Source: Escherichia phage skuden
Strand: one strand, 5' to 3'
Length of the DNA stretch: 64,000 nucleotides
Sequence record: MN850585.1
Part shown: positions 2,956 through 58,053 of the stretch, in pieces
How positions within the stretch are numbered: position 1 is the first letter of the stretch
How the letters are laid out: each line of letters opens with the position of its first letter
Made by a program: the position numbers and the translations under genes
The notes under the pieces: model-generated
Told to the model about the DNA's origin: nothing
The model's input: only the letters and a program-made list of their open reading frames with translations
Databases searched by the model: none

Positions 2956-3327
2956 TTATTTTTCAGTATTCTTTGTGTTCTTTTCAGTAATAGCTTGGAG
3001 GGCTGATACTGATTGAGCCAGATTGTTAACACTATCAGAGAATTTATCAAGAGTCTTAGTAAGTTTTGCGTTCTCTCCCTTAACATTCTCTAACTGAACT
3101 TTCTGGTTCTCCATCCCTAGCTGAATCAGTCTCATGTCAGACTGTAAATCACGAATAGCTGAATAGTTACTTTTGGAATAATTATCTAGCTGCTGTAACT
3201 TTGTTGTGACAGACACTTCTTGCTTACCACTTGAAACTTGCATGGTGGTATACATCCCAATAACACTAAAAATACCAACAACAATTGCACCAATATTGTT
3301 TTTAAAAGCTTCCTCTAGCCACTTCAT
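2956..3327 (-). CDS. membrane protein with one N-terminal TM helix and long coiled-coil
   Basis: 123 aa; IGAIVVGIFSVIGMYTT hydrophobic segment then heptad-like Q/L/N-rich region; function unknown. Confidence 0.45.
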   Translation of the reverse strand: MKWLEEAFKNNIGAIVVGIFSVIGMYTTMQVSSGKQEVSVTTKLQQLDNYSKSNYSAIRDLQSDMRLIQLGMENQKVQLENVKGENAKLTKTLDKFSDSVNNLAQSVSALQAITEKNTKNTEK

Positions 3328-3522
3328 TTATTTCTCCCCCTTAAAAGCTTTTTCTAAGTTGTCTACGAACTCATCATCGATAGGCGTGTCTGTTTTACTC
3401 GCAAGATATCTTGCAAGCCTAAAGAACACTTTCTCAATCATGTATTCACTCAGAAGGGATAAAATGAGTTTCCAGAAGAAGCTACCTAGATTTTTTAGAA
3501 GAATTGCTAGGATTGTAGGCAT
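3328..3522 (-). CDS. small membrane protein
   Basis: 64 aa; hydrophobic N-terminus MPTILAILLKNLGSFFWKLILSLL; abuts downstream ORF. Confidence 0.4.
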   Translation of the reverse strand: MPTILAILLKNLGSFFWKLILSLLSEYMIEKVFFRLARYLASKTDTPIDDEFVDNLEKAFKGEK

Positions 3523-3601: not shown

Positions 3602-5947
3602 TTAAGCAGTTCTCACCCAAGCCATTAACTTGTAGAACTGGTTAGTAACACTAAATGCTGAACCAGAACCTGTACCACCAGTGTTACCACTAACTGTATG
3701 GCTGTGAGCACCAATACCAACACTGTGAGCATGGTTACCAGCAGAAGCGGCAGTACCACTTACAGAGTGGGTGTGAGCACCGTTAGCATCGGTGTAACCC
3801 GGTCCTACACCAATACTACCACCACCACCACCAGAGTAGTGTGTAGAGTTCTGACCAATCCACGAAATGGAATGGTTGTGGTTACCAGCAGATGAAGTAG
3901 AGCCACTTACAGAGTGAGCGTGAGCACCAGTCGTGTTAGTGTTTTTTGTTCCGTAGTCAAAAGATGAAGTGGTAGCAGAAAAACTGTGAGTGTGTGAAGG
4001 CAAGTTCCCAACAGCTAACGTCACAGAGTCTGAACCACCAGTTGTAGCAACATCTGAACCATTTGCTGCTGCAATTCTGATAGTTCTACCAACACCATTG
4101 TTGAGGTACGTCCAAGTTAGACCAGGCAGTGCTGTATTAGGGTTAACATTACTGTTAAACCACGTTACAATACCTACTGGATAGATTTTATTAAGGTCTG
4201 TAGAGTCACTTACTGCCTGTGCAATCTTCTGGTCAGTTTCAGTTTTAGTGTATGCACCAATATCTGAAGGGGTTGGTTTAAATGCCGTTGAATACAACTG
4301 TGCCTCTCCAACATATTCTCCATCTGACCCATAAGCATATGTGAAGACATCAAGACCTTTAGACCCATATGTAAAAGCAATACCTCTGGCATGAGCAATG
4401 CCAGCAGAGTGTGCTACATGGATGGCTAAATCTTTCAGACCCTGCTCAATATCGTTATTTCTTACAAACCCTGAATAATCTTTATTGAATGACGCTGTGT
4501 CCTCCAACCTATTAGTTGTCCTTACCATTAAAGATTGGTTTAGCAGTTTTGTTTTTAAGAAATATCTAGCATCTAAGTTAGACCAATCAGAAGGCTGCAC
4601 TTGACCAGTGATTTTGACAGTTTTATTCAACAAGAAATCATCTTTCATATAAATCGTAGTTGCGGTTCTGTCGTTATGGATAACAAATCTTTCTGGGTTG
4701 GATGGTTCCCCATTCCCAATGTACCACCTTCTAACACCATCAGCATTATGACCAGCAAAGTATAGCTCTCTGTCTTGTGTAGTATTCTTTAGCTGTAACA
4801 ATGAGCCATTCTGATTAATAATCTGTGCAATCCTAAAAGTGTTTACATCACTTAACTTAGCAAGATTGCTCAAAGTTCCTGCTGAGATGTATCTAGAGTC
4901 AATGTTAGTCCAATCTGAAGGTTGAACTTGACCAGTGATTTTCACAGTCTTAGTAGTGGTAATCACATTTGACAAAGAGATAGTTGTACTCGTGGTGTAG
5001 TTATGTAGGTTGACTACAGAATCAGAGTCATCAGTCCCTAAGTAGAACTTGTTTGTCCCATCAGCCTTCTGCCCCAGCAAGTACAGTCCAGTTGCAGCAG
5101 TGGCATTCTTAACGACTAGCACAGCGTTATCTCTGGTGATATTGAACTCTCCTACAAAATTGTTAATACCCCTGAAGGTGTTATTGCCAACTAGCTGCGC
5201 AAATCTCTGATTAGCTGCTGTCTGAGTAAAGTATCTAGCATCTAAGTTAGAGAAGTCAGAAGGTTGAACCTGTCCAGTAATAGCGAGAGCCTTATTAACA
5301 GACACAATTGCACCTAGAGTGATTCTTGAACCTCTGCTGTTTTCGAGATGAACATCAAGACTTCCTCGAGTTAGATTCCCAACAGCCCAAGTTTTATCAT
5401 TATTGGCATTTCGACCTACAATAGCGGAGTATGCCTCACTTGCACCCGCAGGGGTCTTCAGTGTCAACTGCTCACCATTTGCTACGACACTCTGTTTAGC
5501 TTGGAATGAGTTTGTAACAGCAAGTCTTGCATATCTTGCATCATTCTCTTCATTAGTTCTCATCCCAAGTTCATTAGGACTTGGCTTATTAAGAGTATGA
5601 TAAACAGTTGCAGACCTTGAAGCATCTGCAATAGTTAGTTTAAGACCATTTGCATTGATTTTAAAAGCCTTTAAAACATCCCCCATAGTAATCTCAGAAG
5701 AACCTGTAGGGTCAAATACTGCCTTACCACCATAAAGTAACTTGACAATTCCTAAGTCACCCGTCATAGTGCTACCAGCAATCTGGACAAATCTTTCTAG
5801 TTTAAAAGACGCTAAGAAGTCTTGATAGGTCATTCGACGGTCTTCATCACCCAGCATTTCAGGTCTCTTTTTAACCCTGATATGAAGGAGGTCGTCTGAA
5901 CGAATTGTATCAATTGAGTTTAATTCACTCAACTTGTAATCTGCCAT
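3602..5947 (-). CDS. tail fibre protein (long) with His-rich C-terminal HxH repeats
   Basis: 781 aa; three internal repeats VKITGQVQPSD(W/F)(S/T)N(L/I)D(A/S)RY; C-terminus HTHSFSATTSS...GAHAHSVSG...NHNHSI...GAHSHTVSG...MAWVRTA, shared with the next fibre. Confidence 0.7.
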   Translation of the reverse strand: MADYKLSELNSIDTIRSDDLLHIRVKKRPEMLGDEDRRMTYQDFLASFKLERFVQIAGSTMTGDLGIVKLLYGGKAVFDPTGSSEITMGDVLKAFKINANGLKLTIADASRSATVYHTLNKPSPNELGMRTNEENDARYARLAVTNSFQAKQSVVANGEQLTLKTPAGASEAYSAIVGRNANNDKTWAVGNLTRGSLDVHLENSRGSRITLGAIVSVNKALAITGQVQPSDFSNLDARYFTQTAANQRFAQLVGNNTFRGINNFVGEFNITRDNAVLVVKNATAATGLYLLGQKADGTNKFYLGTDDSDSVVNLHNYTTSTTISLSNVITTTKTVKITGQVQPSDWTNIDSRYISAGTLSNLAKLSDVNTFRIAQIINQNGSLLQLKNTTQDRELYFAGHNADGVRRWYIGNGEPSNPERFVIHNDRTATTIYMKDDFLLNKTVKITGQVQPSDWSNLDARYFLKTKLLNQSLMVRTTNRLEDTASFNKDYSGFVRNNDIEQGLKDLAIHVAHSAGIAHARGIAFTYGSKGLDVFTYAYGSDGEYVGEAQLYSTAFKPTPSDIGAYTKTETDQKIAQAVSDSTDLNKIYPVGIVTWFNSNVNPNTALPGLTWTYLNNGVGRTIRIAAANGSDVATTGGSDSVTLAVGNLPSHTHSFSATTSSFDYGTKNTNTTGAHAHSVSGSTSSAGNHNHSISWIGQNSTHYSGGGGGSIGVGPGYTDANGAHTHSVSGTAASAGNHAHSVGIGAHSHTVSGNTGGTGSGSAFSVTNQFYKLMAWVRTA

Positions 5948-26844: not shown

Positions 26845-26920
26845 TGGAGAATCCGAAGGGACTCGAACCCTTATAAACCTGTTTTGCAGACAGGCACATA
26901 GCCATTTCTGTCACGGATTC
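26845..26920 (-). tRNA. tRNA-Cys (anticodon GCA)
   Basis: hand-folded cloverleaf; T-loop TTCGAGT; 7-bp acceptor; loop CTGCAAA; CCA encoded. Confidence 0.65.
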
Positions 26921-26924
26921 AAAT

Positions 26925-27017
26925 TGGAGGAAGATACCAGACTTGAACTGGTACACCGATTTCTCAGCTACTGGCAGTTTAGCAAACTGCTCCCTTACCT
27001 TTTAGGGTTAATCTTCC
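26925..27017 (-). tRNA. tRNA-Ser (anticodon GCT), class II
   Basis: 93 nt; acceptor GGAAGAT/ATCTTCC; T-loop TTCAAGT; anticodon loop TTGCTAA; long variable arm. Confidence 0.6.
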
Positions 27018-27018
27018 A

Positions 27019-27756
27019 TTATTTCTGTAATGCGCTCTTCATTTCTGGTGTTGCAATAGTGTCGATTACACCAGTTTTACAAGCATCATCAAACCAGTCT
27101 GGTAAGATACCTGCTAAGAACCCATTGATATTCGTTTTAAGGTACTCTGCAATAAGGGCAGCTTCTTCTTCAATCATCTGCACAACTTCATCTGCATAAG
27201 CTGTAATCTTTGAGATACCTTCATTAATCTTACTAACAGCCTGATTAGCTAAATCAGAAACAGTATCAAGACCCTTATCAATAGCGTCTTGTAAGTCACT
27301 TAACACACTGTTAACACTGTCTAGTGTGCTGTTAATCATGTCAATAGCTTTTTGACCATACTCTGTAGCAACACCCATAATACCACTGAATGGTGTACAA
27401 CCAACTTGTTCTCCTGCTGCACCCATAACATTGGAATATCCCTTTGCTACCTGCATACGTGATGAAAACTCATCAATAGACTTTTGACCATAGTCTGTTA
27501 GGGTCTTAGTGGTTGCTGTAGTGCTTGTCAGGCTTGTTGTAAAGCTGTTTAGAAGGACTGTTGTAAGTCCAGCAGCAACAAGCTTCTCCTTCATTGTAGG
27601 GTCTGTTACAGAGCTAATAGAGCTTACAAGTGATGTAGAGGCAGCTACGGTTCCACCGAGAACTGCTGCACCAGTAATAAGTGGGTTAGAAAACCCTTTA
27701 CCGGTTTTTAAGAGATTAAAAATCTCCTTACCTTGTTCTGTCATCTCTTTCATTAA
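27019..27756 (-). CDS. hypothetical protein (Ser/Thr-rich) inside tRNA cluster
   Basis: track ORF 27019..27969 has an N-terminal extension overlapping tRNAs; likely start at MKEMTEQ (27756). Confidence 0.4.
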   Translation of the reverse strand, partial: LMKEMTEQGKEIFNLLKTGKGFSNPLITGAAVLGGTVAASTSLVSSISSVTDPTMKEKLVAAGLTTVLLNSFTTSLTSTTATTKTLTDYGQKSIDEFSSRMQVAKGYSNVMGAAGEQVGCTPFSGIMGVATEYGQKAIDMINSTLDSVNSVLSDLQDAIDKGLDTVSDLANQAVSKINEGISKITAYADEVVQMIEEEAALIAEYLKTNINGFLAGILPDWFDDACKTGVIDTIATPEMKSALQK

Positions 27757-27769
27757 GCACCTTTGAAAT

Positions 27770-27845
27770 TGGTAGTCCAGTGGGATTTGAACCCTCTTCT
27801 CATGTTTTTCAGACACGCGCTTTACCATATAAGCTACTTGGACTA
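27770..27845 (-). tRNA. tRNA-Phe (anticodon GAA)
   Basis: perfect 7-bp acceptor TAGTCCA/TGGACTA; T-loop TTCAAAT; anticodon loop CTGAAAA. Confidence 0.6.
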
Positions 27846-27850
27846 TAAAT

Positions 27851-27926
27851 TGGGGTGACCTACGGGATTTGAACCCGTATAGACCATGTTCACAGCATGG
27901 GTCATTACCATTTATGATAAGGCCAC
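27851..27926 (-). tRNA. tRNA-His (anticodon GTG)
   Basis: T-arm ACGGG-TTCAAAT-CCCGT; anticodon stem CCATG/CATGG with loop CTGTGAA. Confidence 0.65.
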
Positions 27927-27957
27927 ATTTAAGGACTCTCGTAAGAACCCTTAGAAG

Positions 27958-35338: not shown

Positions 35339-36468
35339 TTAAAGCAAAGACTTACCCAGACTTTAAAGAGTTTGTGAAGGGCTTCATTGCAAACGTAAAA
35401 GCTGGTAAGAGATATGATTTTAGAGCATATCAAGAGGCTATTTTACCGCTTACCTATAGTTCGTATTGGCCTGAAGCTGATATTGCAGAAGTTGAGGAGT
35501 TTGACTACAAACCAGACTACAAAGTTCCATTTAGTGATGAGTTGCTTTACAGCATTGGTGCTCAAATGAGAACTTCTGACTTCTTCATGGACTTACAATA
35601 TGCAATTATCAATGGTAAAGATGTTGATACAATTTATTGTGAATGGCTGGCAAGAGTTAAACCATTCTCAATGTTGAATGCTAAGTTGAAGGATGCTATC
35701 AAGCCGCCAGCAATCACTCAGCAGCCAACCAATCAAACAGTAAATGAAGGTGGTACGCTTACCCTAAGTGTTGTTGCAACGAATGCCACTGGATATCAAT
35801 GGAAAAAGGATGGTGAGGATATCACTAGCGCCACATCTGCAACCTACACAAAACAGTCTGTATTACCTTCTGATGCAGGTTCATACACTTGTGTTGTATC
35901 TGGAGAGGCTGGGACAAGTGTTACCTCAGATGCGGCAACAGTTACTGTTAATGCACTGCCTGTGATTACACAGCAGCCTTCTGGTCAGACCGTCAATGAG
36001 GGTGGAAACATCAACTTGGAAGTGACTGCAACAGGTGCAACAGGTTACCAATGGAAGAAAGATGGCTCTGACATTCCTTCAGCTACAAATGCTACCTATA
36101 GCAAGTCTGGTGCGCTGCCAGCAGATGCAGGTTCATACACTTGCGTTGTAACAGGTGCGGGTGGTGCAGTGACATCTAATGCTGCTGTAGTAACTGTGAA
36201 CGCACTTCCAGTAATCACTCAACAGCCAACCAATCAAGAAATCACTGAAGGTGAGACCTTAACGCTGAATGTTGCGGCAACAGGTGCGACAGGTTACCAG
36301 TGGAAGAAAGGTGAGGAAGACATCCTCGATGCAACTACTGCAACTTACACCAAAGAAGGTGCAACTGCTGCTGATGCAGGAAGCTATACATGTGTAGTTA
36401 CTGGCGCAGGTGGCTCTGTAACATCTAATGCAGCAACAGTTACTGTTAACCCAGCAGGGGAGGCATAA
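35335..36468 (+). CDS. protein with three tandem Ig-like domains
   Basis: 377 aa; three ~83-aa repeats P(V/A)ITQQP(S/T)(G/N)QTVNEGG...ATGYQWKKDG...(D/S)AGSYTCVV(T/S)G..G..TS(N/D)AA(T/V)VTVNA with the Ig Y-x-C signature. Confidence 0.55.
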   Translation: MIKAKTYPDFKEFVKGFIANVKAGKRYDFRAYQEAILPLTYSSYWPEADIAEVEEFDYKPDYKVPFSDELLYSIGAQMRTSDFFMDLQYAIINGKDVDTIYCEWLARVKPFSMLNAKLKDAIKPPAITQQPTNQTVNEGGTLTLSVVATNATGYQWKKDGEDITSATSATYTKQSVLPSDAGSYTCVVSGEAGTSVTSDAATVTVNALPVITQQPSGQTVNEGGNINLEVTATGATGYQWKKDGSDIPSATNATYSKSGALPADAGSYTCVVTGAGGAVTSNAAVVTVNALPVITQQPTNQEITEGETLTLNVAATGATGYQWKKGEEDILDATTATYTKEGATAADAGSYTCVVTGAGGSVTSNAATVTVNPAGEA

Positions 36469-36932
36469 TGCAACTCTCAAGAAAAGGTTTAGAAGCTATT
36501 AAGTTCTTTGAAGGTCTTAAACTAGAGGCTTACGAAGATTCTGCTGGAATCCCTACAATTGGGTATGGGACAATCCGTATTGCTGGTAAACCTGTTAAGA
36601 TGGGTATGAAGATTACCGCTGAACAAGCTGAACAGTATCTTCTCGCAGATGTTGAAAAGTTCGTTGCAGCAGTGAACAAATCCATCAAGGTTCCAACTTC
36701 CCAGAATGAGTTTGACGCACTTGTAAGTGAAACATACAACATTGGCATCACAGCTATGCAAGACTCTACATTTATCAAGCGCCACAACGATGGTAATAAG
36801 GTCGGTTGTGCAGAAGCTATGCAGTGGTGGAACAAGGTTACAGTCAAAGGTAAGAAGGTCACTTCAAACGGCCTGAAAAACAGACGTAGAATGGAAGCTG
36901 ACATTTATCTTGACAGTGTATATCCAAAGTAA
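36468..36932 (+). CDS. endolysin, phage lysozyme (GH24 family)
   Basis: 154 aa; GLEAIKFFEGLKLEAYEDSAGIPTIGYGT matches GH24 lysozyme N-terminus; ATG overlaps upstream stop. Confidence 0.8.
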   Translation: MQLSRKGLEAIKFFEGLKLEAYEDSAGIPTIGYGTIRIAGKPVKMGMKITAEQAEQYLLADVEKFVAAVNKSIKVPTSQNEFDALVSETYNIGITAMQDSTFIKRHNDGNKVGCAEAMQWWNKVTVKGKKVTSNGLKNRRRMEADIYLDSVYPK

Positions 36933-47011: not shown

Positions 47012-47344
47012 TCAAGAATTTTGTTTTCGTTTGCTCAATTCTTGAACAATTACAGCGTAGTAGTCTTTTAAGTCACTGATATTTAAAGCATTTATCAGAG
47101 AATTATAATCATCAACTAACTGGAAATCATCTTTGAAGATGTCACTTACCTGATAGGTTTTTGCCTTATATCTGAAGCTCATCTCTAGCCGCTTTATTTG
47201 CTCATCACTTAAACGCCCCAGAAAGCTCTCTACAAGGTTATTGCTAACCTGCTGTGTAATTGCCTTATTTGCTAGATTATAGGCTTTATATGCCTTATAA
47301 AGCGCGAAAATGGCAATGATTGCAGTGATGCCAGTCATTAACAT
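47012..47344 (-). CDS. small membrane protein (cassette-array gene 11)
   Basis: 110 aa; N-terminal TM MLMTGITAIIAIFALYKAY. Confidence 0.5.
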   Translation of the reverse strand: MLMTGITAIIAIFALYKAYKAYNLANKAITQQVSNNLVESFLGRLSDEQIKRLEMSFRYKAKTYQVSDIFKDDFQLVDDYNSLINALNISDLKDYYAVIVQELSKRKQNS

Positions 47345-51363: not shown

Positions 51364-51667
51364 TTGTAAGTTCCTCTGTTGGTAATTCACCATTCTCAGC
51401 AAAGTATTGAAGGTACGGCAATAACTCTTTTACCTGTTCTTGATTGAGCTTCATTCTTTGGTTACCTACAAAGTCTTTGCCTACTAACGATGAGATATCA
51501 AGTGTTTTCCAGCCACCATCTAGGTACTGAACAGAGACCTCTTTAGCACCTAACCAGATACATGGTTCATATGATGAACTTTCTTGTAAAGTACAAATTT
51601 CCCCTTTAGCATCTTTAAATTCTGCATAAGAAAATCCACGATTTGTTGGCTGGAATTGCATAATCAT
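51353..51667 (-). CDS. hypothetical protein
   Basis: 104-aa ORF. Confidence 0.45.
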   Translation of the reverse strand: MIMQFQPTNRGFSYAEFKDAKGEICTLQESSSYEPCIWLGAKEVSVQYLDGGWKTLDISSLVGKDFVGNQRMKLNQEQVKELLPYLQYFAENGELPTEELTNAD

Positions 51668-51933
51668 TTCCTCGTTTTAAGAACTGCTAAGATTTCTTTA
51701 GAGTCTGGTAAGAACCATGTGTAGTGATTCTCTTTGATTTCTGGATGAGTGTCAACCTTTATTTTGCACTCTTTACCAACATGCTTTAGTTGTGCTGTGA
51801 TACCTTGCATAAAAATATGACACATCACATTATCCATAATGGTCGGTGAGAAATCAATTCGCATATAAGTTTCTTTTGGTCGTGGTAGCAGTAAGTACCC
51901 TTCTACATAGAAAGTGTCTTCATTCTCTGTCAT
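51664..51933 (-). CDS. hypothetical protein
   Basis: 89-aa ORF. Confidence 0.45.
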   Translation of the reverse strand: MTENEDTFYVEGYLLLPRPKETYMRIDFSPTIMDNVMCHIFMQGITAQLKHVGKECKIKVDTHPEIKENHYTWFLPDSKEILAVLKTRK

Positions 51934-52199
51934 TGCTGTTTGTTCCCTAATAAAATCATATCAATAAGGTTATTAGCTTTGATTGTGCACTGGTAAAAAC
52001 CATCACGATAAAACTCAAGGGCTGCTGCCACATCACTACCAGTATTACCTTTGACAGTGAATCTTGACTCTTCTTGAGTGTACTTGTCACTCTCACTTAC
52101 TTGGGAGTTTTTGAATGTACTGTTCACTTTGTTCGTTGAACACCCTGACATAATTATCAGTAACACAAACATTATAAAACTCTGGCTTAGTTTTTTCAT
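51930..52199 (-). CDS. outer-membrane lipoprotein, o-spanin candidate
   Basis: 89 aa; signal peptide with lipobox-like ...IIMSGC; overlaps 3' end of upstream TM/coiled-coil gene out of frame. Confidence 0.5.
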   Translation of the reverse strand: MKKLSQSFIMFVLLIIMSGCSTNKVNSTFKNSQVSESDKYTQEESRFTVKGNTGSDVAAALEFYRDGFYQCTIKANNLIDMILLGNKQQ

Positions 52200-52440
52200 A
52201 TGTTAGTACCTCTTTTGTATGCTTATTCTTAGCAAGCACATCTTTCAAATCGTTTTTGTAATTGGCGCTTAGTGTGGCTAAACCTTCCTGATAAGCATCT
52301 TTAGCAACACTTATGAGCTTTTGATTGTTTAGCTCAGTTTCAGCAACTTGATAGTCTCTGTAAGAGTATCCTCCCCAGACACCTGCCCCAACTAAGAAAA
52401 CAATTATGAAAGTAGCTTGACAGAACTCTTTAAATGTCAT
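52093..52440 (-). CDS. i-spanin candidate (N-terminal TM, periplasmic coiled-coil)
   Basis: 115 aa; TM FIIVFLVGAGVWGGY; alpha-helical remainder; overlapped by lipoprotein ORF. Confidence 0.5.
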   Translation of the reverse strand: MTFKEFCQATFIIVFLVGAGVWGGYSYRDYQVAETELNNQKLISVAKDAYQEGLATLSANYKNDLKDVLAKNKHTKEVLTYEKTKPEFYNVCVTDNYVRVFNEQSEQYIQKLPSK

Positions 52441-52458
52441 TTAACAATCTCCTGAAAT

Positions 52459-52480
52459 GAAAAAGGCTCCCGAAGGAGCC
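52459..52480 (-). terminator. rho-independent terminator
   Basis: minus-strand RNA GGCTCC-TTCG-GGAGCC then TTTTT. Confidence 0.6.
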
Positions 52481-52492
52481 TGTATCTTAACC

Positions 52493-52957
52493 TTAACCGA
52501 GGACTTTAGCAAGGACATTTGCAGCCATCGAAGAAGCTTTTGCAGCAGCAGCTACCCCAGCTTTGACAGTGCTATCCTTGATAGCAGATACCGTTGCAGC
52601 ATCAGTAAAGAGATAAGTAGTTGTTTTAGAACCACTTGTAAAGGAAAGCATGAGAGCAGTTTCCAGATTGAAAGAGCGATACGGAGCACCTTCTTTAACG
52701 ATACCTTCAGCACCTAACTCTGAAGCCATACCCATATCATAGATAGTCATCAGGTTTTCTTTGTGTGCAGTCGTTGAACCAGCACCTTTGACGTGTTTCT
52801 TAACATTCAGAAGAGCACGGTATTCTCGGATGTTACCATCTGCTTTTACATTGACAGCACGGAAGATTTTACCCTCAAAGTTGCTTTTGATAATGTTACG
52901 AACTACTTCAGATTTGTTTGCCGTAACGTCCAGTGCTACCGTAATGATATTGTTCAT
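52493..52957 (-). CDS. hypothetical protein
   Basis: 154-aa ORF, Ala-rich C-terminus, biased codon usage. Confidence 0.45.
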   Translation of the reverse strand: MNNIITVALDVTANKSEVVRNIIKSNFEGKIFRAVNVKADGNIREYRALLNVKKHVKGAGSTTAHKENLMTIYDMGMASELGAEGIVKEGAPYRSFNLETALMLSFTSGSKTTTYLFTDAATVSAIKDSTVKAGVAAAAKASSMAANVLAKVLG

Positions 52958-52967
52958 AAGTTTTCTC

Positions 52968-53663
52968 TCAATGTTTTACTAACATAGTTTTAATGTGCGG
53001 AAGGATTCTGTTTACCTTCTGAACATTCTTCTCTGTATCTTCTATAAAACATACTATATCAAAGTAAGGAAGAATGCAAGACTGAATCATCCTAACTTTC
53101 AAACTTTCTGCATTTATAGAGTTAGTTCCAAAACCGCGCATAAAAAGCATGTAATCGTGCTCTATGTTATGCCTTAAGAACATCTCAGTAGGTATTCTCT
53201 GAGATTCACCTCTCGCTGTCAAGAGTCCAATGGCAGCGTGATTAGCAATTGCATCAATAATATTGAAAACATACGTTGGTTTTGCTCTTACAGAGTCAAG
53301 AAGATTAGTGTACTGAGAGAATGACCCATCAGTCAATTCCGTTGAGCAATCTTCGTGATTAAAATTTGTAAGAACACCATCAATATCTGCTAAGATGAGG
53401 TTACCTTTTTCTACAAGGTCTTTATTGACTATGACTAAACTGTCACGTCTCACACCTATAGATTGTCCAGTCTCTTTGTCCACAACGTTCACAATTGGTT
53501 CTGATGTGTGGAACTCTTCAAGTGAACATACAACTTCTCTTGCAGTGTCTTCAAAATCCCTGCACTGTTCTGGAGTCCATATACAGGAATCAAGACCTAA
53601 CTCATGAGGATGCAAGTCGTAAGCATGACACAGTACTTCATCAGACTTTCTTAATTTTTTCAT
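52968..53663 (-). CDS. HAD-superfamily phosphatase-like protein
   Basis: 231 aa; motif LILADIDGVLTNF (DxDG); precise activity unknown. Confidence 0.45.
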   Translation of the reverse strand: MKKLRKSDEVLCHAYDLHPHELGLDSCIWTPEQCRDFEDTAREVVCSLEEFHTSEPIVNVVDKETGQSIGVRRDSLVIVNKDLVEKGNLILADIDGVLTNFNHEDCSTELTDGSFSQYTNLLDSVRAKPTYVFNIIDAIANHAAIGLLTARGESQRIPTEMFLRHNIEHDYMLFMRGFGTNSINAESLKVRMIQSCILPYFDIVCFIEDTEKNVQKVNRILPHIKTMLVKH

Positions 53664-54189
53664 GATTTACCTTAGAAATGTTTGTTGCAAATTCACATTT
53701 AGCGATGACTTTCATATTGTTATAGACATCTTGAGAGTATTTCTTAGCTTTAGGAATTTTGTACGAATACCCAGCATTATATGATGCTAAAACTTTTTGT
53801 AAAGTTTTCTTTGACTTTGGTTGACCGTGCACCTTAGTCCAAAATTCAAGCTCTTTGTGTGTTTCCTTTGCAGCATAGTCAAAATCTTTTAAGAGTTTCT
53901 TTTTAGCCACATTAGGACTGATTTTGTTACGCTTTACAACAGTCTTCAAGTGATTCTGGAAGATACCATAGTCATGTGTCTTTTTATTCTCTACATTCAG
54001 ACCTAACTCTGACTCTTGTAAGGCTATAGCAGCTAGAGTGATACCCCAACCTTTACCCATATTATTCTCACCATACTGGTAAGCTTTTAACATGTTTACT
54101 TTTTGGCTAATTGATAGCTCTGGGCAGTCAACTGCATAAGATAAGTGTGCTGTAAACATTAAGCACAAACCTAGAATCAATTTCTTCAT
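53641..54189 (-). CDS. secreted lytic transglycosylase-like protein (SLT fold)
   Basis: 182 aa; signal peptide MKKLILGLCLMFTAHLSYA; motifs QESELG...GIFQ and YNAG. Confidence 0.5.
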   Translation of the reverse strand: MKKLILGLCLMFTAHLSYAVDCPELSISQKVNMLKAYQYGENNMGKGWGITLAAIALQESELGLNVENKKTHDYGIFQNHLKTVVKRNKISPNVAKKKLLKDFDYAAKETHKELEFWTKVHGQPKSKKTLQKVLASYNAGYSYKIPKAKKYSQDVYNNMKVIAKCEFATNISKVNHEKIKKV

Positions 54190-54250
54190 TGGTTCTCCTG
54201 TTTAGTTTATCGTGACAACAATTATACAGCACTCTGCACAAAATACAAAT

Positions 54251-54273
54251 AAAAAAGGCCGCCGAAGCAGCCT
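54251..54273 (-). terminator. rho-independent terminator after rIIB
   Basis: minus-strand RNA AGGCUGC-UUCG-GCGGCCU followed by UUUUUU. Confidence 0.6.
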
Positions 54274-54289
54274 TTTAAGAAATTACTTA

Positions 54290-55402
54290 TTAGATTTCAC
54301 GTTTACGTTGGGAGATTAGTTCACCAGCAGTGCCAACGATGACATGCAAAGCTTCAGTCTTGCCATCCCATTCTTTCAGCACTTTACGTTGGCTATCAAC
54401 GATTGCTGCAACTTCATAACGAGACGAACGCATCTTCATATCGTTGTAATCAGTTGGAACAGATACAACATCTCGTGGATGGACACGAACCTTCAGGATT
54501 GTATCACCTGAGAAGCAACGAACATAATCCCAAGCACCAACATGAAGACCTTGAGAGCAAGTTACGTTACGGTTATTATCAACCATCCAACGTGGCATCT
54601 CTACAATGTTACCCAAATCATTAGGTACTCTGTAGGTATGGGAGTCAACCAGCTTGCCTTCACGAGTAGAGACTTTCTTCCAACCAATGATGTAGCCTTC
54701 TTCATCGATTTCAACATCAAGGTGAGATACGAAGCCCCAAAGTTGTTCTACGGAATCTTTAGATGGGTTTTCCATCAGTTTTTCGAAGAACATTACAAGG
54801 CGTTCAAAACCCTTATCTCCAGTCTTCATCATGTGAAGAATACGGTCAACCAGAGTAGAACGCATCTCAACAGCACCGTAGAATAACTTATCACCTTTGA
54901 TGGTGATAGCGCCCTGAGTGAAGTTTTCGATAGACTTACGAATGTTCATCAATTCAAAGGCTTTTTTGAACTCACCTTTCACAACATGAACTACAATCTC
55001 TTGATAGTTCGGATGAGTAGACTCAACAATTTCAGATTCTGAACCGTAAGTCATAATTACAGAGTCACCAGTAATCATGTACTCAATCTTGTCATCTTTC
55101 TGCATAGCTTCATGCAGTTTATTTACTGGAGCTTTCTGTACAGCGTCTTTAACGACCTTTTCAACTGGTTTGCCAGCTTTCTTTTTAAAAGTCTTAGCAA
55201 CTTGCTTCAAAGTCTTCGTAGCTGGTGTAGAAGTCGCCTTCTTCTTCTTCCCTTTTAAGGTTGCTTCATGACGCTCTACAGCACGACCAACTGAACGGGT
55301 TGAGGTGTTAAATTTCTGTGCAATAGCTGTTTTAGTCAGCTTACCCTCTTTAACCAGTTTGTAAATTTCTGCGTCAATCTGTGCTTTGGTTTTAGTAGTC
55401 AT
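54290..55402 (-). CDS. rIIB: rIIB protein
   Basis: 370 aa; C-terminal two-thirds align to T4 rIIB as recalled (LFYG..E.RS.LVDRIL, ENPSKD, HPRDVVS(V/I)P.DYND.KMR); N-terminal HTH. Confidence 0.85.
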   Translation of the reverse strand: MTTKTKAQIDAEIYKLVKEGKLTKTAIAQKFNTSTRSVGRAVERHEATLKGKKKKATSTPATKTLKQVAKTFKKKAGKPVEKVVKDAVQKAPVNKLHEAMQKDDKIEYMITGDSVIMTYGSESEIVESTHPNYQEIVVHVVKGEFKKAFELMNIRKSIENFTQGAITIKGDKLFYGAVEMRSTLVDRILHMMKTGDKGFERLVMFFEKLMENPSKDSVEQLWGFVSHLDVEIDEEGYIIGWKKVSTREGKLVDSHTYRVPNDLGNIVEMPRWMVDNNRNVTCSQGLHVGAWDYVRCFSGDTILKVRVHPRDVVSVPTDYNDMKMRSSRYEVAAIVDSQRKVLKEWDGKTEALHVIVGTAGELISQRKREI

Positions 55403-55481: not shown

Positions 55482-57848
55482 TTAATCGTAAATTGTAGTT
55501 CCTTCTGGAACACACTTCACATCAAAACCTAAGAACTTACTCACTTCGATGGGTGACACTTTATTCCAATCTAAATGAGAAAGCAAGAAGTTTTCTTGTT
55601 TTCTTTTTGAAAGATAGTTTGTCAGTTTGATAACCATGCGGTCACCCGCTTTCTTAATCTTTTTGTACAGTTTTGTATCATTGTCAAGGCATGACTTCAA
55701 ATCCTGAAGAACACTGATAGTGTAAGTGTATGCAAACGGTGCAGCCACATACTGAATCTTACCAAAAATTGCCTCAACAGCATTCTCATTGCCTTCTAAG
55801 AAGATGGTTTTGTTTGTATCTCGTGAATAGCAATACCCGCGAGAAATCTTCTTGTTATTAAACGTAAAGTTTCTGGCAATAATCCAACTACTTGTAAGGT
55901 CAAGGACACCATTCATATAGATACGTGTCATATACCTATTATGATTAATCCAGTGAACATCAGTTAAGCTGTCATTCAATAGTTTCTCATCTACTTCAAT
56001 CCAGTCTTCTGGTATCTTTTTCCAATTTGCTTTTCGGAAAACATAGACTGTTTTTCCTATAACATTAGCAATTGTTTTAGCTACATCTTCTGGGGATGAG
56101 CAAAAACATTCACCATCAACTGTGTCACCTACTGCCTTGATATAAAGTTGGGGTTCTTCAATTGTATCTAGGTCTTCTGACACCTCTGTGTATGAAGCTT
56201 TAGTTTCTGATGGAACAGCTTTCCAGAGTTTTACAACACCCCTCACAGCTTCTTTACGCTGATAGTGGTGTTCCTTATCAGACATCTTCACAATCTTTAA
56301 CAAGCTTTTATCAAGTTTATGCAGATTGATTAGGTCGTCTAACTCTTTCTCAGTAGAGAATACAAAGACGATACCATTGTATCTGTGAAACAGACTTGAC
56401 TCACTGGCATAGTCTCGACATGCACCACGCAAGATTTGATTGCGTCCTACAGTCTTCTCAGTACCGTTTTTATTGCGACGGTCATTGATAACAAACAAAA
56501 ACTGTTCAATTTGGCTTTTACGCATTGCGCCAAAGATATTGAACATACTTGCCTCTTGAGTGTAGGAAAGCGATGTTGCACGAATCTTACTCTCTAAAGA
56601 GTTGAACTTAACATAAGCAACTGGATTATAAAGATAATCTACTTTAGGGATGTTGTTTCCGTTCCTATCAACCTTAATATTACCTTTACCGTCACGTTCA
56701 TAGATGACTGAGCCATCTTCTGCGTAGATAATTCCACGACGAATGTTTAGTAATTCTTCTTCCAGAGAATCAAGCTTAACACCACCCCACTCCAGCTTTG
56801 GACACACAGCATTAAACATCTCTCGTGAGTTCAAGCGTAACTCAGCATAAGCCTGTGCAGCATCCATGAGTGTAGGTTGACTATTAACTTTCTTGATAAC
56901 ATCCTTTGTAATTGCTTCAGTTATCTTTTTAGTAGCCTCAATGATAACATTTTTTGTTGTATCATTCATCTGCAATGCTTCACGAGAAGCTGCAATAGCA
57001 ACTGAACCAATAGGCATGTAGATGTTTACAAGGTCTACGCTCCTACGGAAAAATTCTGGTAAGACTTTGAAGAAATCATCACCAAGTAATGCTTCCATGT
57101 TAACAGGGTAGGCAATGTTACCCATCACCACATTAAACTCTGTCCTGTTACCACTAGAACGCCAGCTTTGCTTATGAATCATGGCATCATAAACACCCTC
57201 TTCACGGGCAATGACGTTCATATCTGCTAATACATCGTCGTACACAATATTACTTTCTGGTTTTACAGCAAAGTATGAGTATACATTACCAGCTTCTTCA
57301 AAGAACTTTGAGATACGGTGGTCAGCAACTGCTACACGTACAGCTAAACCATTAGGTTCTTTTGTTGGGTTGGTGGTCAGCTTAGTTACTTGAGGGATAC
57401 CATTCTCAAGATAAACAGAGTACTTATTAACAACACCGTCAACATAGCTAGACACTGTGAATGACTGAGCAATTGCAAATGGTGATTTTGAGCCGATACC
57501 CATTGCACCAATGTAGTCATTAGAGTCATTCTTCGTAGAAGCTCCATAGTTTAGGTACAAACTCATAACTTTATCATGAGTCAATCCAGTTCCAAAATCA
57601 CGAACTTCAAAGTAAGGCTCAAAACGAGTAGGTAAATGCACATGGAACGGGATGTTTTCTTTTCCAGCTTCTTTCTGAGCATCTACTGCGTTACATGATA
57701 GTTCACGAATTACTGCTCGCTCTTTAAATGTATATACACCAGAACTCAGAAGGCTGAACATTTCAGGTGTCATTGTAATCTGTGCTTGAGATGTCTCCAA
57801 AGAAGTTGAACTCTTAATCACTTCTGCGTGGTCGTTTACCATGCGCAT
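55482..57848 (-). CDS. rIIA: rIIA protein (GHKL/HSP90-like ATPase domain)
   Basis: 788 aa; RAVIRELSCNAVDA, RDFGTGL, IGAMGIGSKSPF match GHKL boxes and T4 rIIA N-terminus as recalled. Confidence 0.85.
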   Translation of the reverse strand: MRMVNDHAEVIKSSTSLETSQAQITMTPEMFSLLSSGVYTFKERAVIRELSCNAVDAQKEAGKENIPFHVHLPTRFEPYFEVRDFGTGLTHDKVMSLYLNYGASTKNDSNDYIGAMGIGSKSPFAIAQSFTVSSYVDGVVNKYSVYLENGIPQVTKLTTNPTKEPNGLAVRVAVADHRISKFFEEAGNVYSYFAVKPESNIVYDDVLADMNVIAREEGVYDAMIHKQSWRSSGNRTEFNVVMGNIAYPVNMEALLGDDFFKVLPEFFRRSVDLVNIYMPIGSVAIAASREALQMNDTTKNVIIEATKKITEAITKDVIKKVNSQPTLMDAAQAYAELRLNSREMFNAVCPKLEWGGVKLDSLEEELLNIRRGIIYAEDGSVIYERDGKGNIKVDRNGNNIPKVDYLYNPVAYVKFNSLESKIRATSLSYTQEASMFNIFGAMRKSQIEQFLFVINDRRNKNGTEKTVGRNQILRGACRDYASESSLFHRYNGIVFVFSTEKELDDLINLHKLDKSLLKIVKMSDKEHHYQRKEAVRGVVKLWKAVPSETKASYTEVSEDLDTIEEPQLYIKAVGDTVDGECFCSSPEDVAKTIANVIGKTVYVFRKANWKKIPEDWIEVDEKLLNDSLTDVHWINHNRYMTRIYMNGVLDLTSSWIIARNFTFNNKKISRGYCYSRDTNKTIFLEGNENAVEAIFGKIQYVAAPFAYTYTISVLQDLKSCLDNDTKLYKKIKKAGDRMVIKLTNYLSKRKQENFLLSHLDWNKVSPIEVSKFLGFDVKCVPEGTTIYD

Positions 57849-57876: not shown

Positions 57877-58053
57877 TTACTTATTAAACATTTTACCAGA
57901 ACCACCACAAATAGGGCAACAGCCTGCTCTTGTATACCCTTCTCCGTTGCAGTAATCACACTTCTTGCACTCTACATAGTACTTGCAAAGAAGGTAAACA
58001 AATACTGCTACACTACCAAGTGACAGTAAAATTTCTATCCAATATGCTTGCAT
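57877..58053 (-). CDS. small membrane protein with C-terminal Cys cluster, 58 aa (below track cutoff)
   Basis: hand-translated MQAYWIEILLSLGSVAVFVYLLCKYYVECKKCDYCNGEGYTRAGCCPICGGSGKMFNK. Confidence 0.35.
   Translation of the reverse strand: MQAYWIEILLSLGSVAVFVYLLCKYYVECKKCDYCNGEGYTRAGCCPICGGSGKMFNK

Follow-up and report, generated by a model that had tools for sequence, protein, structure and literature searches.

A probable overlapped spanin pair among the scattered lysis genes of the Felix O1-like Escherichia phage skuden

Described lysis systems and place of the skuden locus

The lysis genes of the Felix O1-type phages are scattered, as stated in the genome paper of phage Moogle, and overlapped i-spanin/o-spanin families of the 'JH2' type, including those of Felix01, Moogle, wV8 and EC6, were described by Kongari et al. 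(2018) in SpaninDB, where the listed members are Felix01, FO1a, Moogle, Mushroom, UAB_phi87, wV8, EC6 and JH2. Numerous GenBank records, among them Moogle as annotated by the Center for Phage Technology, label the homologues of the two genes i-spanin and o-spanin; the o-spanin label is carried by the homologue in Moogle, mio, SME50 and Pr103Blw. In the literature searched, neither a complementation of lambda Rz/Rz1 nor a deletion experiment was found for a JH2-type pair.

In phage lambda, Rz1 is wholly embedded in Rz, and the mature protein (about 40 aa) is proline-rich, with a penta-proline stretch. In T4, the spanin genes are of the 'separated' type (PseT.3 and PseT.2; 117 and 99 aa as annotated) and lie upstream of pseT. 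The T4 o-spanin family, which is devoid of a proline-rich region, bears a helix at its C-terminus (Kongari et al. 2018). T4 also possesses Vs.1, a conserved ORF with marginal similarity to SLT. Phage PM2 has been reported to rely on host autolysins, without a spanin; according to a review, its P18 protein helps to disrupt the outer membrane, and P18 homologues have been reported in Felix 01 and RB49.

We analysed a window of 64,000 nucleotides from the skuden record (MN850585.1), which, judged by its sequence, is that of a Felix O1-like myophage (Felixounavirus). Its region 51600-54400 is covered to at least 80% by 254 public phage records, with a top identity of 97.6%, and the spanin pair, the scattered layout, the P18 homologue and the SLT-like Vs.1 ORF were each already known from the literature or GenBank. 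The layout of the lysis genes is dispersed and T4-like: behind the tail-fibre gene come the P18-like gene and a putative holin gene (2956..3522), the endolysin gene stands alone, and the spanin genes lie near a gene resembling that of polynucleotide kinase (PNK), with rIIA and rIIB upstream. The dispersal of lysis functions noticed in an earlier sequence-only reading of the window agrees with the published statement on Felix O1-like phages.

The overlapped spanin genes

The two genes, both on the minus strand, are an i-spanin gene (52093..52440, 115 aa) and an o-spanin gene (51930..52199, 89 aa), and the coordinates proposed for them by the sequence-only reading proved exact. It had also described a membrane-protein gene overlapped out of frame by a lipoprotein gene: the 107 nt common to both (52093..52199, minus strand) encode the i-spanin C-terminus and, in the +1 frame, the o-spanin signal peptide. 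We consider it very likely that the pair is an overlapped two-component spanin of the SpaninDB 'JH2' family; this confidence is that of our whole best explanation (spanin pair, scattered lysis genes and separate Vs.1-type enzyme). The match to PHROG 1152, the GenBank annotations and the SpaninDB JH2 listing all agree with the i-spanin/o-spanin assignment made previously.

The i-spanin matches PHROG 1152 'Rz-like spanin' over residues 1-115 (E 1.7e-41), and its start is preceded by an AGGAG ribosome-binding site. Its sole hydrophobic segment is N-terminal (start at residue 6; 19-residue Kyte-Doolittle mean 1.75) and would form a transmembrane anchor at about residues 6-24, while the remaining ~90 residues are hydrophilic. 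This hydropathy points to a type II topology, with the bulk of the protein in the periplasm. Residues 27-85 comprise a single Pro or Gly and are made up of A, E, L, K and Q for 51%, and the periplasmic domain is probably helical; a canonical coiled-coil signal was not found in a crude heptad test (contrast of 0.40 versus 0.50 ± 0.10 for shuffles). The conserved periplasmic cysteine, Cys92, stands in a F.N.C..D.Y..FN motif and is kept as far as an Erwinia Kolesnikvirus.

The o-spanin precursor comprises a lipoprotein signal peptide with the lipobox IMSG-C20, a flexible linker and a C-terminal helix bearing the conserved Cys71. Its N-terminus (MKKLSQSFIMFVLLIIMSGC) matches a PROSITE-like lipobox with Cys20 and a Ser at +2; the stretch MKKLSQSFIMFVLLIIMSG-C20-S21 satisfies the PS51257-like pattern, and Cys20 is conserved, in agreement with the earlier lipoprotein call. 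The +2 Ser (not Asp) is compatible with sorting to the outer membrane. The lipobox cysteine is invariant in 12 homologues as well as in the Erwinia and metagenomic relatives, and together with the second cysteine it is kept in Moogle, the metagenomic relative L005 and the Erwinia phage despite their diverged N-terminal sequences. The protein belongs to PHROG 4180 (E 5e-51), it weakly matches PHROG 456 'Rz-like spanin' (E 8e-5), and its N-terminus gives weak matches to NCBIfam lipoprotein families. In a low-confidence AF2 model (pLDDT 59), residues 18-53 are disordered and residues 54-87 form a helix.

The sequence-only reading had rightly noted that the lipoprotein is not proline-rich (no proline in skuden; 0, 1 and 4 in relatives), and had doubted the o-spanin call for that reason. 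This doubt does not hold: since the T4 o-spanin family has no proline-rich region either, the missing prolines exclude only membership of the lambda Rz1 family.

The reading frames, targeting signals, conservation and dual coding of the pair were established by the analysis. The substitution patterns by codon position indicate that both frames are coding: in the part that is specific to the o-spanin, the third positions of the o-frame hold 25 of the 38 differences from Moogle and 29 of the 55 differences from L005, and in the i-spanin-specific part the third positions of the i-frame hold 39 of the 60 differences from Moogle. Nucleotide identity is higher in the overlap than in its flanks (90.7% versus 75-77% with Moogle; 77.6% versus 59-66% with L005), which is the expected signature of dual coding. 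The overlapped +1-frame layout with a type-II membrane protein is kept in Felixounavirus, Mooglevirus, Kolesnikvirus (Erwinia phage) and L005, and the periplasmic cysteines, one per subunit, are kept in all relatives examined. Kongari et al. (2018) describe as universal among two-component spanins the presence of one or more periplasmic cysteines in each subunit.

Many GenBank records set the o-spanin start too late (M17 or V25), so that the signal peptide is lost, and many records or gene callers give a protein of 73, 68 or 65 aa or name it 'hypothetical'. The start should be placed at the upstream ATG (89 aa), which is preceded at 9 nt by the ribosome-binding site AAGAGG. The late-start annotation probably explains the paper in which phage vB_Si_DR094 is reported with an i-spanin only.

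Compared to the Moogle/JH2 family, the skuden pair is an isolate-level variant with no difference of substance: the proteins are 79-83% identical to the Moogle i-spanin and o-spanin, and the lengths (115/89 aa) and the 107-nt overlap are equal. The pair resembles lambda Rz/Rz1 in pairing a type-II inner-membrane protein with a lipoprotein of the outer membrane whose gene uses the +1 frame of the same DNA, in the periplasmic cysteine present in both subunits and, by analogy, in a presumed membrane-fusion role. Unlike lambda Rz1, however, the skuden o-spanin gene runs past the i-spanin stop and the mature protein (69 aa) has no proline, and the pair lies outside any lysis cassette. Likenesses to T4 are the similar protein sizes (115 and 89 aa, versus 117 and 99 aa), the o-spanin family without a proline-rich region but with a C-terminal helix, and the position of the spanins beside a polynucleotide kinase gene, at a distance from both holin and endolysin. 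The skuden spanins have no detectable sequence similarity to PseT.3/PseT.2. Their genes overlap, whereas those of T4 are separated, and they lie downstream of the PNK-like gene, with one gene in between, rather than upstream.

The exported transglycosylase and the other lysis genes

Between the i-spanin gene and the three-gene unit upstream of it stands an intrinsic-terminator-like hairpin (52464..52481, minus strand), 24 nt ahead of the i-spanin start; AYO145A has a terminator annotated at a homologous site. The spanin genes directly follow this terminator among early-type genes, and no promoter was recognised for them alone; their late expression is therefore an assumption. The gene between the spanins and the PNK-like gene (52493..52957, minus strand) encodes a conserved 154-aa protein, 89.6% identical in Moogle, which belongs to PHROG 2267 (unknown function) and matches neither Pfam nor NCBIfam. 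The PNK-like gene (52968..53663, minus strand) is annotated 'polynucleotide kinase' at the family level (PHROG 3970, E 9e-135); its similarity to T4 PseT is weak and limited to the HAD-phosphatase region, and one homologue carries PF25109 HAD_PNKP. It overlaps by 23 nt the transglycosylase gene (53641..54189, minus strand). Directly upstream of the latter, after rIIB, stands a strong intrinsic-terminator-like hairpin (54253..54276, minus strand), and the annotation of AYO145A has both a terminator and a promoter at the equivalent place. The transglycosylase gene appears to be in a transcription unit separate from that of the spanins, with predicted terminators at both ends. Further upstream are the homologues of rIIB (54290..55402, minus strand; PHROG 609, E 5.6e-89) and rIIA (55482..57848, minus strand; PHROG 612, E 2.4e-189).

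The sequence-only reading had correctly placed a signal-peptide SLT-like ORF 1.2 kb upstream of the spanins, and its 'lysis function' label was an assumption. The protein (182 aa) begins with a signal peptide of n-h-c layout (MKK / LILGLCLMFTAHL / SYA-VD), with a predicted cleavage at SYA|VD. The short h-region (13 residues) and the AxA-type cleavage site indicate a Sec signal that can be cleaved off, and not a SAR anchor. The match to Pfam SLT (PF01464) is sub-threshold (E 0.0015; 18.5 bits versus a gathering cut-off of 21.3), PF01464 is present on distant homologues (P0015-P0017), and a PDB-sequence profile search gave goose lysozyme as a marginal match (E 0.011). The goose-lysozyme/SLT fold and the homologies of the protein were established. 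E59, G75, Q78, S136, Y137, N138, G140 and Y151 are invariant in 13 homologues, with identities down to 30%, and S60 is kept in at least 90% of the homologues aligned. The motifs known to define family 1 lytic transglycosylases are all present, namely the catalytic Glu in an E-S motif, G-L/I-M/F-Q and A/S-Y-N-x-G.

In BLASTP, the protein is 32% identical to T4 Vs.1 over about 155 residues (E 2e-17), and its tblastn matches fall in regions annotated vs.1 in T4-like phages and occur in 2128 of 50,697 phage records. Both proteins have similar lengths (181 aa for T4 and 182 aa for skuden), an N-terminal signal-like sequence and the ES, FQN and SYN.G motifs. They differ in their gene neighbours (regB and vs in T4; rIIB and the PNK-like gene in skuden) and in the Cys22/Cys165 pair, which is kept in the closer, mostly Ounavirinae homologues and has no counterpart in the aligned T4 Vs.1 (residues 1-163). 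From these motifs and homologies we identify the protein as a predicted Sec-exported GH23 (SLT-type) lytic transglycosylase of the Vs.1 family, which is probably catalytically active in the periplasm.

The endolysin gene (36468..36932, plus strand) encodes a soluble GH24 enzyme of the T4 e type (PF00959, E 2.5e-40; PHROG 7 endolysin), 87.7% identical to that of Moogle and devoid of a hydrophobic segment, as fits a canonical cytoplasmic endolysin. It had been placed about 16 kb away on the opposite strand, and indeed lies 15 kb from the spanins and 16.7 kb from the SLT-like gene.

Three small membrane ORFs (3328..3522, 47012..47344 and 57877..58053) had been put forward as holin candidates, and all three exist. 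For the last two, no support as holins was found. The first, 3328..3522 (minus strand), is not a holin: it is homologous to P18 (gp l) of the corticovirus PM2, which has an accessory part in lysis as an outer-membrane disruptor. PF26925 Phage_PM2_Gpl is precomputed on 23/23 of its homologues, and its ungapped alignment to PM2 gp l (41 residues) has a Smith-Waterman score of 80, versus 21.7 ± 4.1 for shuffles (0/5000 as high; z = 14); BLASTP against gp l and the local Pfam copy gave no match. The adjacent gene (2956..3327, minus strand), downstream of the tail-fibre gene, was overlooked by the sequence-only reading. It encodes a putative holin of 123 aa with one N-terminal transmembrane domain and a long helical C-terminal domain. 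Its homologues are labelled 'holin' or 'putative holin' in Moogle, ekra, BPS17S6 and many more records, these labels being predictions, and its PHROG 4038 is labelled unknown function. The gene order is identical in the T4-like phage JSE (tail fibre, P18-like, holin T), where it corresponds to the position of holin T; no sequence similarity to holin T or PM2 P17 was found. As P18 abuts P17 in PM2, the skuden P18-like ORF abuts this small protein with a single transmembrane domain, in the reverse gene order, and unlike PM2 skuden also encodes an endolysin and spanins. Skuden and T4 have in common the GH24 endolysin, rIIA/rIIB, Vs.1 and the holin position beside the tail-fibre genes.

Alternative readings, proposed lysis pathway and meaning

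The 89-aa frame might be an untranslated chance ORF within and after the 115-aa gene, as could be suggested by the many gene callers that shorten it or label it hypothetical and by the paper that found only an i-spanin. This reading, to which we give practically no credit, is refuted by the accumulation of differences on the third codon positions of the frame itself and by the extra constraint on the overlap; furthermore, the ORF is kept at full length behind its ribosome-binding site, and its signal peptide keeps the n-h-lipobox form while the sequence changes. The lipoprotein might not be an o-spanin, and could for example act in superinfection exclusion or receptor blocking, like T5 Llp or Cor, its overlap with a membrane-protein gene being due to chance. 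The absence of proline, the 'unknown function' label of PHROG 4180, the early-type neighbours and the presence of another candidate outer-membrane disruptor (the P18-like gene) in the same phage speak in that sense. Yet, the overlapped +1-frame layout is kept from Felixounavirus to Mooglevirus, Kolesnikvirus and the metagenomic relative, each subunit has the single conserved periplasmic cysteine universal among two-component spanins, the partner gene clearly falls within a spanin PHROG, and proline-poor o-spanin families are documented (Kongari et al. 2018), all of which makes this possibility very improbable.

Another question is whether the exported SLT-type enzyme could be a lysis effector which, secreted by Sec independently of the holin, weakens or degrades murein in concert with the neighbouring spanins, offering a second or auxiliary lysis route. 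Its signal peptide, confirmed fold, invariant catalytic Glu and family-1 motifs, and the position of its gene on the strand of the spanins, 1.2 kb upstream, are in favour of this view, as are the names 'lysin' and 'putative lysin' in some GenBank records. But the enzyme is a Vs.1 homologue, and T4, though it has vs.1, still needs the gene e lysozyme for lysis, which indicates that Vs.1 is no substitute for an endolysin. Moreover, a strong terminator separates the gene from the spanins, and it is co-transcribed with the PNK-like gene, not with lysis genes. While 'some role in cell lysis' was proposed for T4 vs.1 (Nolan et al. 2006), this gene is placed among early genes, between regB and vs, and no phenotype has been reported for it in the literature that could be searched. 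We therefore regard a lysis effector as unlikely. A canonical holin-controlled endolysin was rejected for this protein, which has a cleavable Sec signal rather than the features of cytoplasmic build-up or SAR.

We thus retain the spanin pair, with scattered lysis genes and a separate Vs.1-type enzyme, and infer the functional steps of lysis by analogy with lambda Rz/Rz1 and T4 PseT.3/PseT.2. The i-spanin would reach into the periplasm with its helical domain, its N-terminal helix being fixed in the inner membrane. The o-spanin would be cleaved and lipidated at Cys20 and, owing to the Ser at +2, sent to the outer membrane, where its C-terminal helix would bind the distal end of the i-spanin. 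Each subunit probably forms homodimers via its single conserved periplasmic cysteine (Cys92 or Cys71). The complex would stay trapped in the murein meshwork until the holin frees the GH24 endolysin, and would then fuse or disrupt both membranes to complete lysis.

The spanin finding itself has little weight as a discovery. The gain is the corrected o-spanin start and a consolidated map of the lysis genes of Felix O1-type phages, with a T4-like synteny (tail fibre, P18-like gene and holin position; spanins beside the PNK-like gene). Two points stand out from it: the part played by the exported Vs.1 transglycosylase, which is widespread, and the joint presence in one phage of a spanin and a P18-type outer-membrane disruptor. 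It is conceivable, though rather doubtful, that Felix O1-like phages have an envelope programme beyond the three-step textbook scheme, with a holin-independent exported Vs.1-type enzyme and two unrelated outer-membrane disruptors. If so, murein would be remodelled or weakened in advance by the Sec-exported enzyme in the course of infection, with effects on lysis timing, on the access of the spanins or on superinfection, and the spanin pair and the PM2 P18-like protein could be redundant or specific to certain conditions, such as high concentrations of divalent cations. Given the Vs.1 matches in 2128/50,697 phage records and the absence of a reported phenotype in the searchable literature, a defined function would extend to T4.

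The overlapping spanin gene pair

According to the sequence-only reading, the lysis functions of this phage are dispersed, with an overlapping spanin pair and a secreted transglycosylase lying far from the endolysin. All the ORFs that it named are present at their coordinates, and we confirmed the observation as a whole; its interpretation is supported with two corrections, one being the unproven role of the SLT-like protein and the other a reassignment of the holin candidates.

The presumed i-spanin gene (115 aa; 52093..52440, minus strand) encodes a protein with a single N-terminal hydrophobic segment. The presumed o-spanin gene (89 aa; 51930..52199, minus strand) is read in the +1 frame and starts 107 nt before the i-spanin stop codon, and both ORFs are preceded by plausible ribosome-binding sites. 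The 89-aa protein begins with MKKLSQSFIMFVLLIIMSG-C, a lipoprotein signal with a serine at position +2. The sequence of this signal peptide varies among relatives (MKRLSLCLLTLVLVMSMSAC in the divergent metagenomic relative L005; ...TTASC in an Erwinia Kolesnikvirus), in which the n-region, the h-region and the lipobox cysteine are kept despite the divergence. Two further cysteines, C71 in the mature lipoprotein and C92 in the periplasmic part of the membrane protein, are also conserved among relatives.

In the part coding only for the 89-aa protein, 25 of the 38 substitutions relative to Citrobacter phage Moogle, and 29 of 55 relative to L005, fall on the third codon positions of that frame; in the part coding only for the 115-aa protein, 39 of the 60 substitutions relative to Moogle fall on third positions of the 115-aa frame. 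Furthermore, nucleotide identity rises in the overlap, to 90.7% with Moogle (flanks, 75-77%) and to 77.6% with L005 (flanks, 59-66%). Judged from these alignments, the third-position bias together with the raised overlap identity is the pattern that would be expected of dual coding. The possibility that the 89-aa frame is a chance ORF was ruled out by the same third-position substitutions and identity rise.

The reading of these genes as a spanin pair is backed by several lines of evidence. Among PHROG families, the best support comes from the 115-aa protein, which falls in PHROG 1152 'Rz-like spanin' (E 1.7e-41); its 89-aa partner gives a strong match to PHROG 4180 ('unknown function') and a weak one to a spanin PHROG (E 8e-5). 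Both genes carry i-spanin and o-spanin labels in the GenBank records of mio, momo, SME50, Pr103Blw, JN01 and others, and Moogle, as annotated by the Center for Phage Technology, has equal 115-aa and 89-aa genes with an equal 107-nt overlap, the proteins being 79% (i-spanin) and 83% (o-spanin) identical to ours. Kongari et al. 2018 placed Felix01, FO1a, Moogle, Mushroom, UAB_phi87, wV8 and EC6 in overlapped 'JH2' i-/o-spanin families, and regarded intermolecular disulfides as a universal feature of two-component spanins. The assignment had been called tentative for want of a proline-rich o-spanin; the 89-aa protein indeed contains no proline, but according to the same study the T4 o-spanin family is likewise devoid of a proline-rich region, so that the missing prolines rule out the lambda Rz1 family only and leave the spanin class in place. 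AF2 modelled the o-spanin with low confidence (pLDDT 59) as a disordered linker (residues 18-53) and then a helix (54-87) containing C71. The periplasmic domain of the i-spanin has few Pro and Gly residues and is probably helical, and a crude test of its heptad periodicity was not significant for a coiled coil.

The start assigned to the o-spanin gene varies in public records: Moogle has the 89-aa form, mio a 73-aa form from M17, and AYO145A a 65-aa form from V25 that is labelled 'hypothetical'. The comparison covers 51930..52199 in the window, L001 3331..3552 and L002 3331..3528, and a truncated 73-aa form represents 303 member sequences in the protein database. These short forms are devoid of the lipoprotein signal, and such late starts probably explain why one paper credits phage vB_Si_DR094 with 'only the i-spanin'.

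An exported Vs.1-type transglycosylase and its gene unit

The 182-aa SLT-like protein (53641..54189, minus strand) possesses a classical Sec signal, consisting of MKK, a 13-residue h-region and SYA followed by VD. Its Pfam SLT match is sub-threshold, phmmer yielded no match among PDB sequences, and a profile search of PDB sequences was marginal, with a spurious PRP4 kinase match at the top; the assignment was settled by fold searches. Homologues down to 30% identity retain E59, G75, Q78, S136-Y137-N138, G140 and Y151, and at least 90% of them retain S60; we take these residues to be the ES, GLMQ and AYNAG motifs of family-1 lytic transglycosylases. Using tblastn, relatives were found in 2128 phage records, among them T4-like phages in which matched regions carry the annotation vs.1, and the protein is 32% identical to T4 Vs.1 (E 2e-17). 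Nolan et al. 2006 reported vs.1 with a marginal SLT match and offered participation in lysis as a guess; our literature searches turned up no later functional study of Vs.1 or of a Felixounavirus transglycosylase, and the paper on the Bas63 virion structure mentions no such enzyme in the virion.

The main alternative of interest is that this exported Vs.1-type enzyme helps lysis or envelope remodelling. The Sec signal, the catalytic motifs and the fold speak for an exported transglycosylase, as had been proposed, whereas its listing among the lysis functions is an assumption. The gene lies in one orientation with a PNK-like (HAD phosphatase) gene and a conserved 154-aa ORF, and terminator-like hairpins bound this unit on both sides (54276..54253 and 52481..52464); the transglycosylase unit therefore stands apart from the spanins, which weighs against the alternative. 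Moreover, T4 needs its gene e lysozyme to lyse although it carries vs.1, which speaks against the enzyme causing lysis autonomously.

No function emerged from the genomic surroundings of three distant SLT homologues. One homologue (L010 6001..6582) occurs on a contig of 215 kb listed as Campylobacter coli, which is probably a jumbo phage because it also encodes the nucleus-shell protein chimallin. Another (L014 4229..4744) adjoins vs (ValRS modifier) on a T4-like contig, close to a gene whose product matches an antiholin family in Pfam, and the third belongs to a 67-kb phage.

The PNK-like gene (52968..53663, minus strand; 231 aa) shares 23 nt with the transglycosylase gene and is called 'polynucleotide kinase' in relatives. 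BLASTP aligned its product weakly with T4 PseT (E 0.03-1.2), in the phosphatase region, including ADIDGVLT / FDVDGTL, and aligned nothing convincing with the kinase part of PseT; the product may be a phosphatase only. The 154-aa ORF (52493..52957, minus strand), whose product is Ala-rich at the C-terminus, is located between the PNK-like and spanin genes, with a terminator after it. Its Moogle counterpart is 89.6% identical, an ORF of similar size is found at the same position in an Erwinia Kolesnikvirus, and the 154-aa product matched nothing in Pfam or NCBIfam; the NCBIfam scans were uninformative overall.

Endolysin, P18-like protein and holin candidates

The GH24 endolysin indeed lies away on the other strand (36468..36932, plus; PF00959, E 2.5e-40) and is 87.7% identical to that of Moogle. 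The three small membrane proteins put forward as holins fared differently. The ORF 3328..3522 is instead a homologue of P18 (gp l) of corticovirus PM2: all 23 of its homologues carry the Pfam family PF26925 Phage_PM2_Gpl, and according to Krupovic and Bamford, Felix 01 and RB49 possess homologues of P18. BLASTP against PM2 gp l reported nothing; a Smith-Waterman alignment gave a 41-residue ungapped match with a score of 80 (shuffles, 21.7 +/- 4.1; 0 of 5000 reached 80). In PM2, P18 is described as aiding outer-membrane disintegration, and P17 as puncturing the cytoplasmic membrane. With this P18-like protein besides the spanin pair, the phage thus has two candidate disruptors of the outer membrane that are unrelated to each other.

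As to 47012..47344 and 57877..58053, they bear only generic labels, none of them 'holin', in about 200 related records for each ORF. The 58-aa protein encoded by 57877..58053 (minus strand), immediately upstream of rIIA, starts with a transmembrane helix, after which come two CxxCxGxG zinc-finger motifs of the DnaJ type (CDYCNGEG ... CPICGGSG), and is called 'membrane protein', 'heat shock protein' or hypothetical in relatives.

A candidate missing from the earlier list is the 123-aa ORF 2956..3327 (minus strand), which abuts the P18-like gene downstream and encodes one TMD and a long helical tail. Its homologues are called 'holin' or 'putative holin' in many records, that of Moogle among them. 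The distal tail fibre gene of JSE, a T4-like phage, is followed by a P18-like gene (44% identity, E 1e-16) and then by holin T, and the order in the window, tail fibre (3602..5947), P18-like gene and 123-aa ORF, is the same. This synteny supports the guess that the 123-aa ORF is the holin, which is unproven because the protein has no sequence similarity to JSE holin T or to PM2 P17. On this point the literature agrees.

Gene organisation and the proposed lysis mechanism

The region 51600-54400 matched 257 phage records, 254 of which cover at least 80% of it (best identity, 97.6%), nearly all being Felixounavirus isolates of Escherichia, Salmonella or Shigella. The gene content of the window agrees with this genus (rIIA, rIIB, the PNK-like gene, the spanin PHROGs and 25 tRNA genes), and the finding therefore belongs to a well-sampled phage genus. 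ARAGORN placed the 25 tRNA genes at 26845..31675 (minus strand), with no tmRNA called in the window, and 23 in Moogle (L004 11252..15011, minus strand), whose GenBank record puts them on the plus strand; the 'tmRNA*' called in Moogle extends over several tRNA genes and appears to be an artefact. Felix O1-like sequence at 95-96% identity occurs in two records named for other phages, GU169904.1 (Staphylococcus phage SA1) and MG065668.1 (Campylobacter phage A126), which are probably chimeric or contaminated assemblies.

The Moogle genome paper already describes the lysis genes of Felix O1-type phages as scattered, and T4 offers a parallel. In T4, the spanin genes pseT.3 and pseT.2 adjoin the polynucleotide kinase gene pseT, distant from e and t, and T4 also has vs.1, rIIA and rIIB, like the phage studied here. 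In BLASTP comparisons of both spanin subunits with PseT.3 and PseT.2, only the lipoprotein signal was alike; the resemblance to T4 is therefore one of organisation, without detectable homology. The order SLT-like gene, PNK-like gene and spanin pair is kept in Moogle, L005 and an Erwinia Kolesnikvirus, with one to several small ORFs between the PNK and spanin genes; this arrangement therefore characterises the Ounavirinae subfamily. Everything central here is already known.

The analysis establishes the targeting signals, the conservation, the dual coding and the family membership of the pair; each functional step of the pathway we infer by analogy, with the standard spanin model as the best-supported account. 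The i-spanin would sit in the inner membrane, the o-spanin, once lipidated, would sit in the outer one, and the two would be joined across the periplasm as a disulfide-stabilised complex, which would act only once the holin-released GH24 endolysin has cleared the murein.
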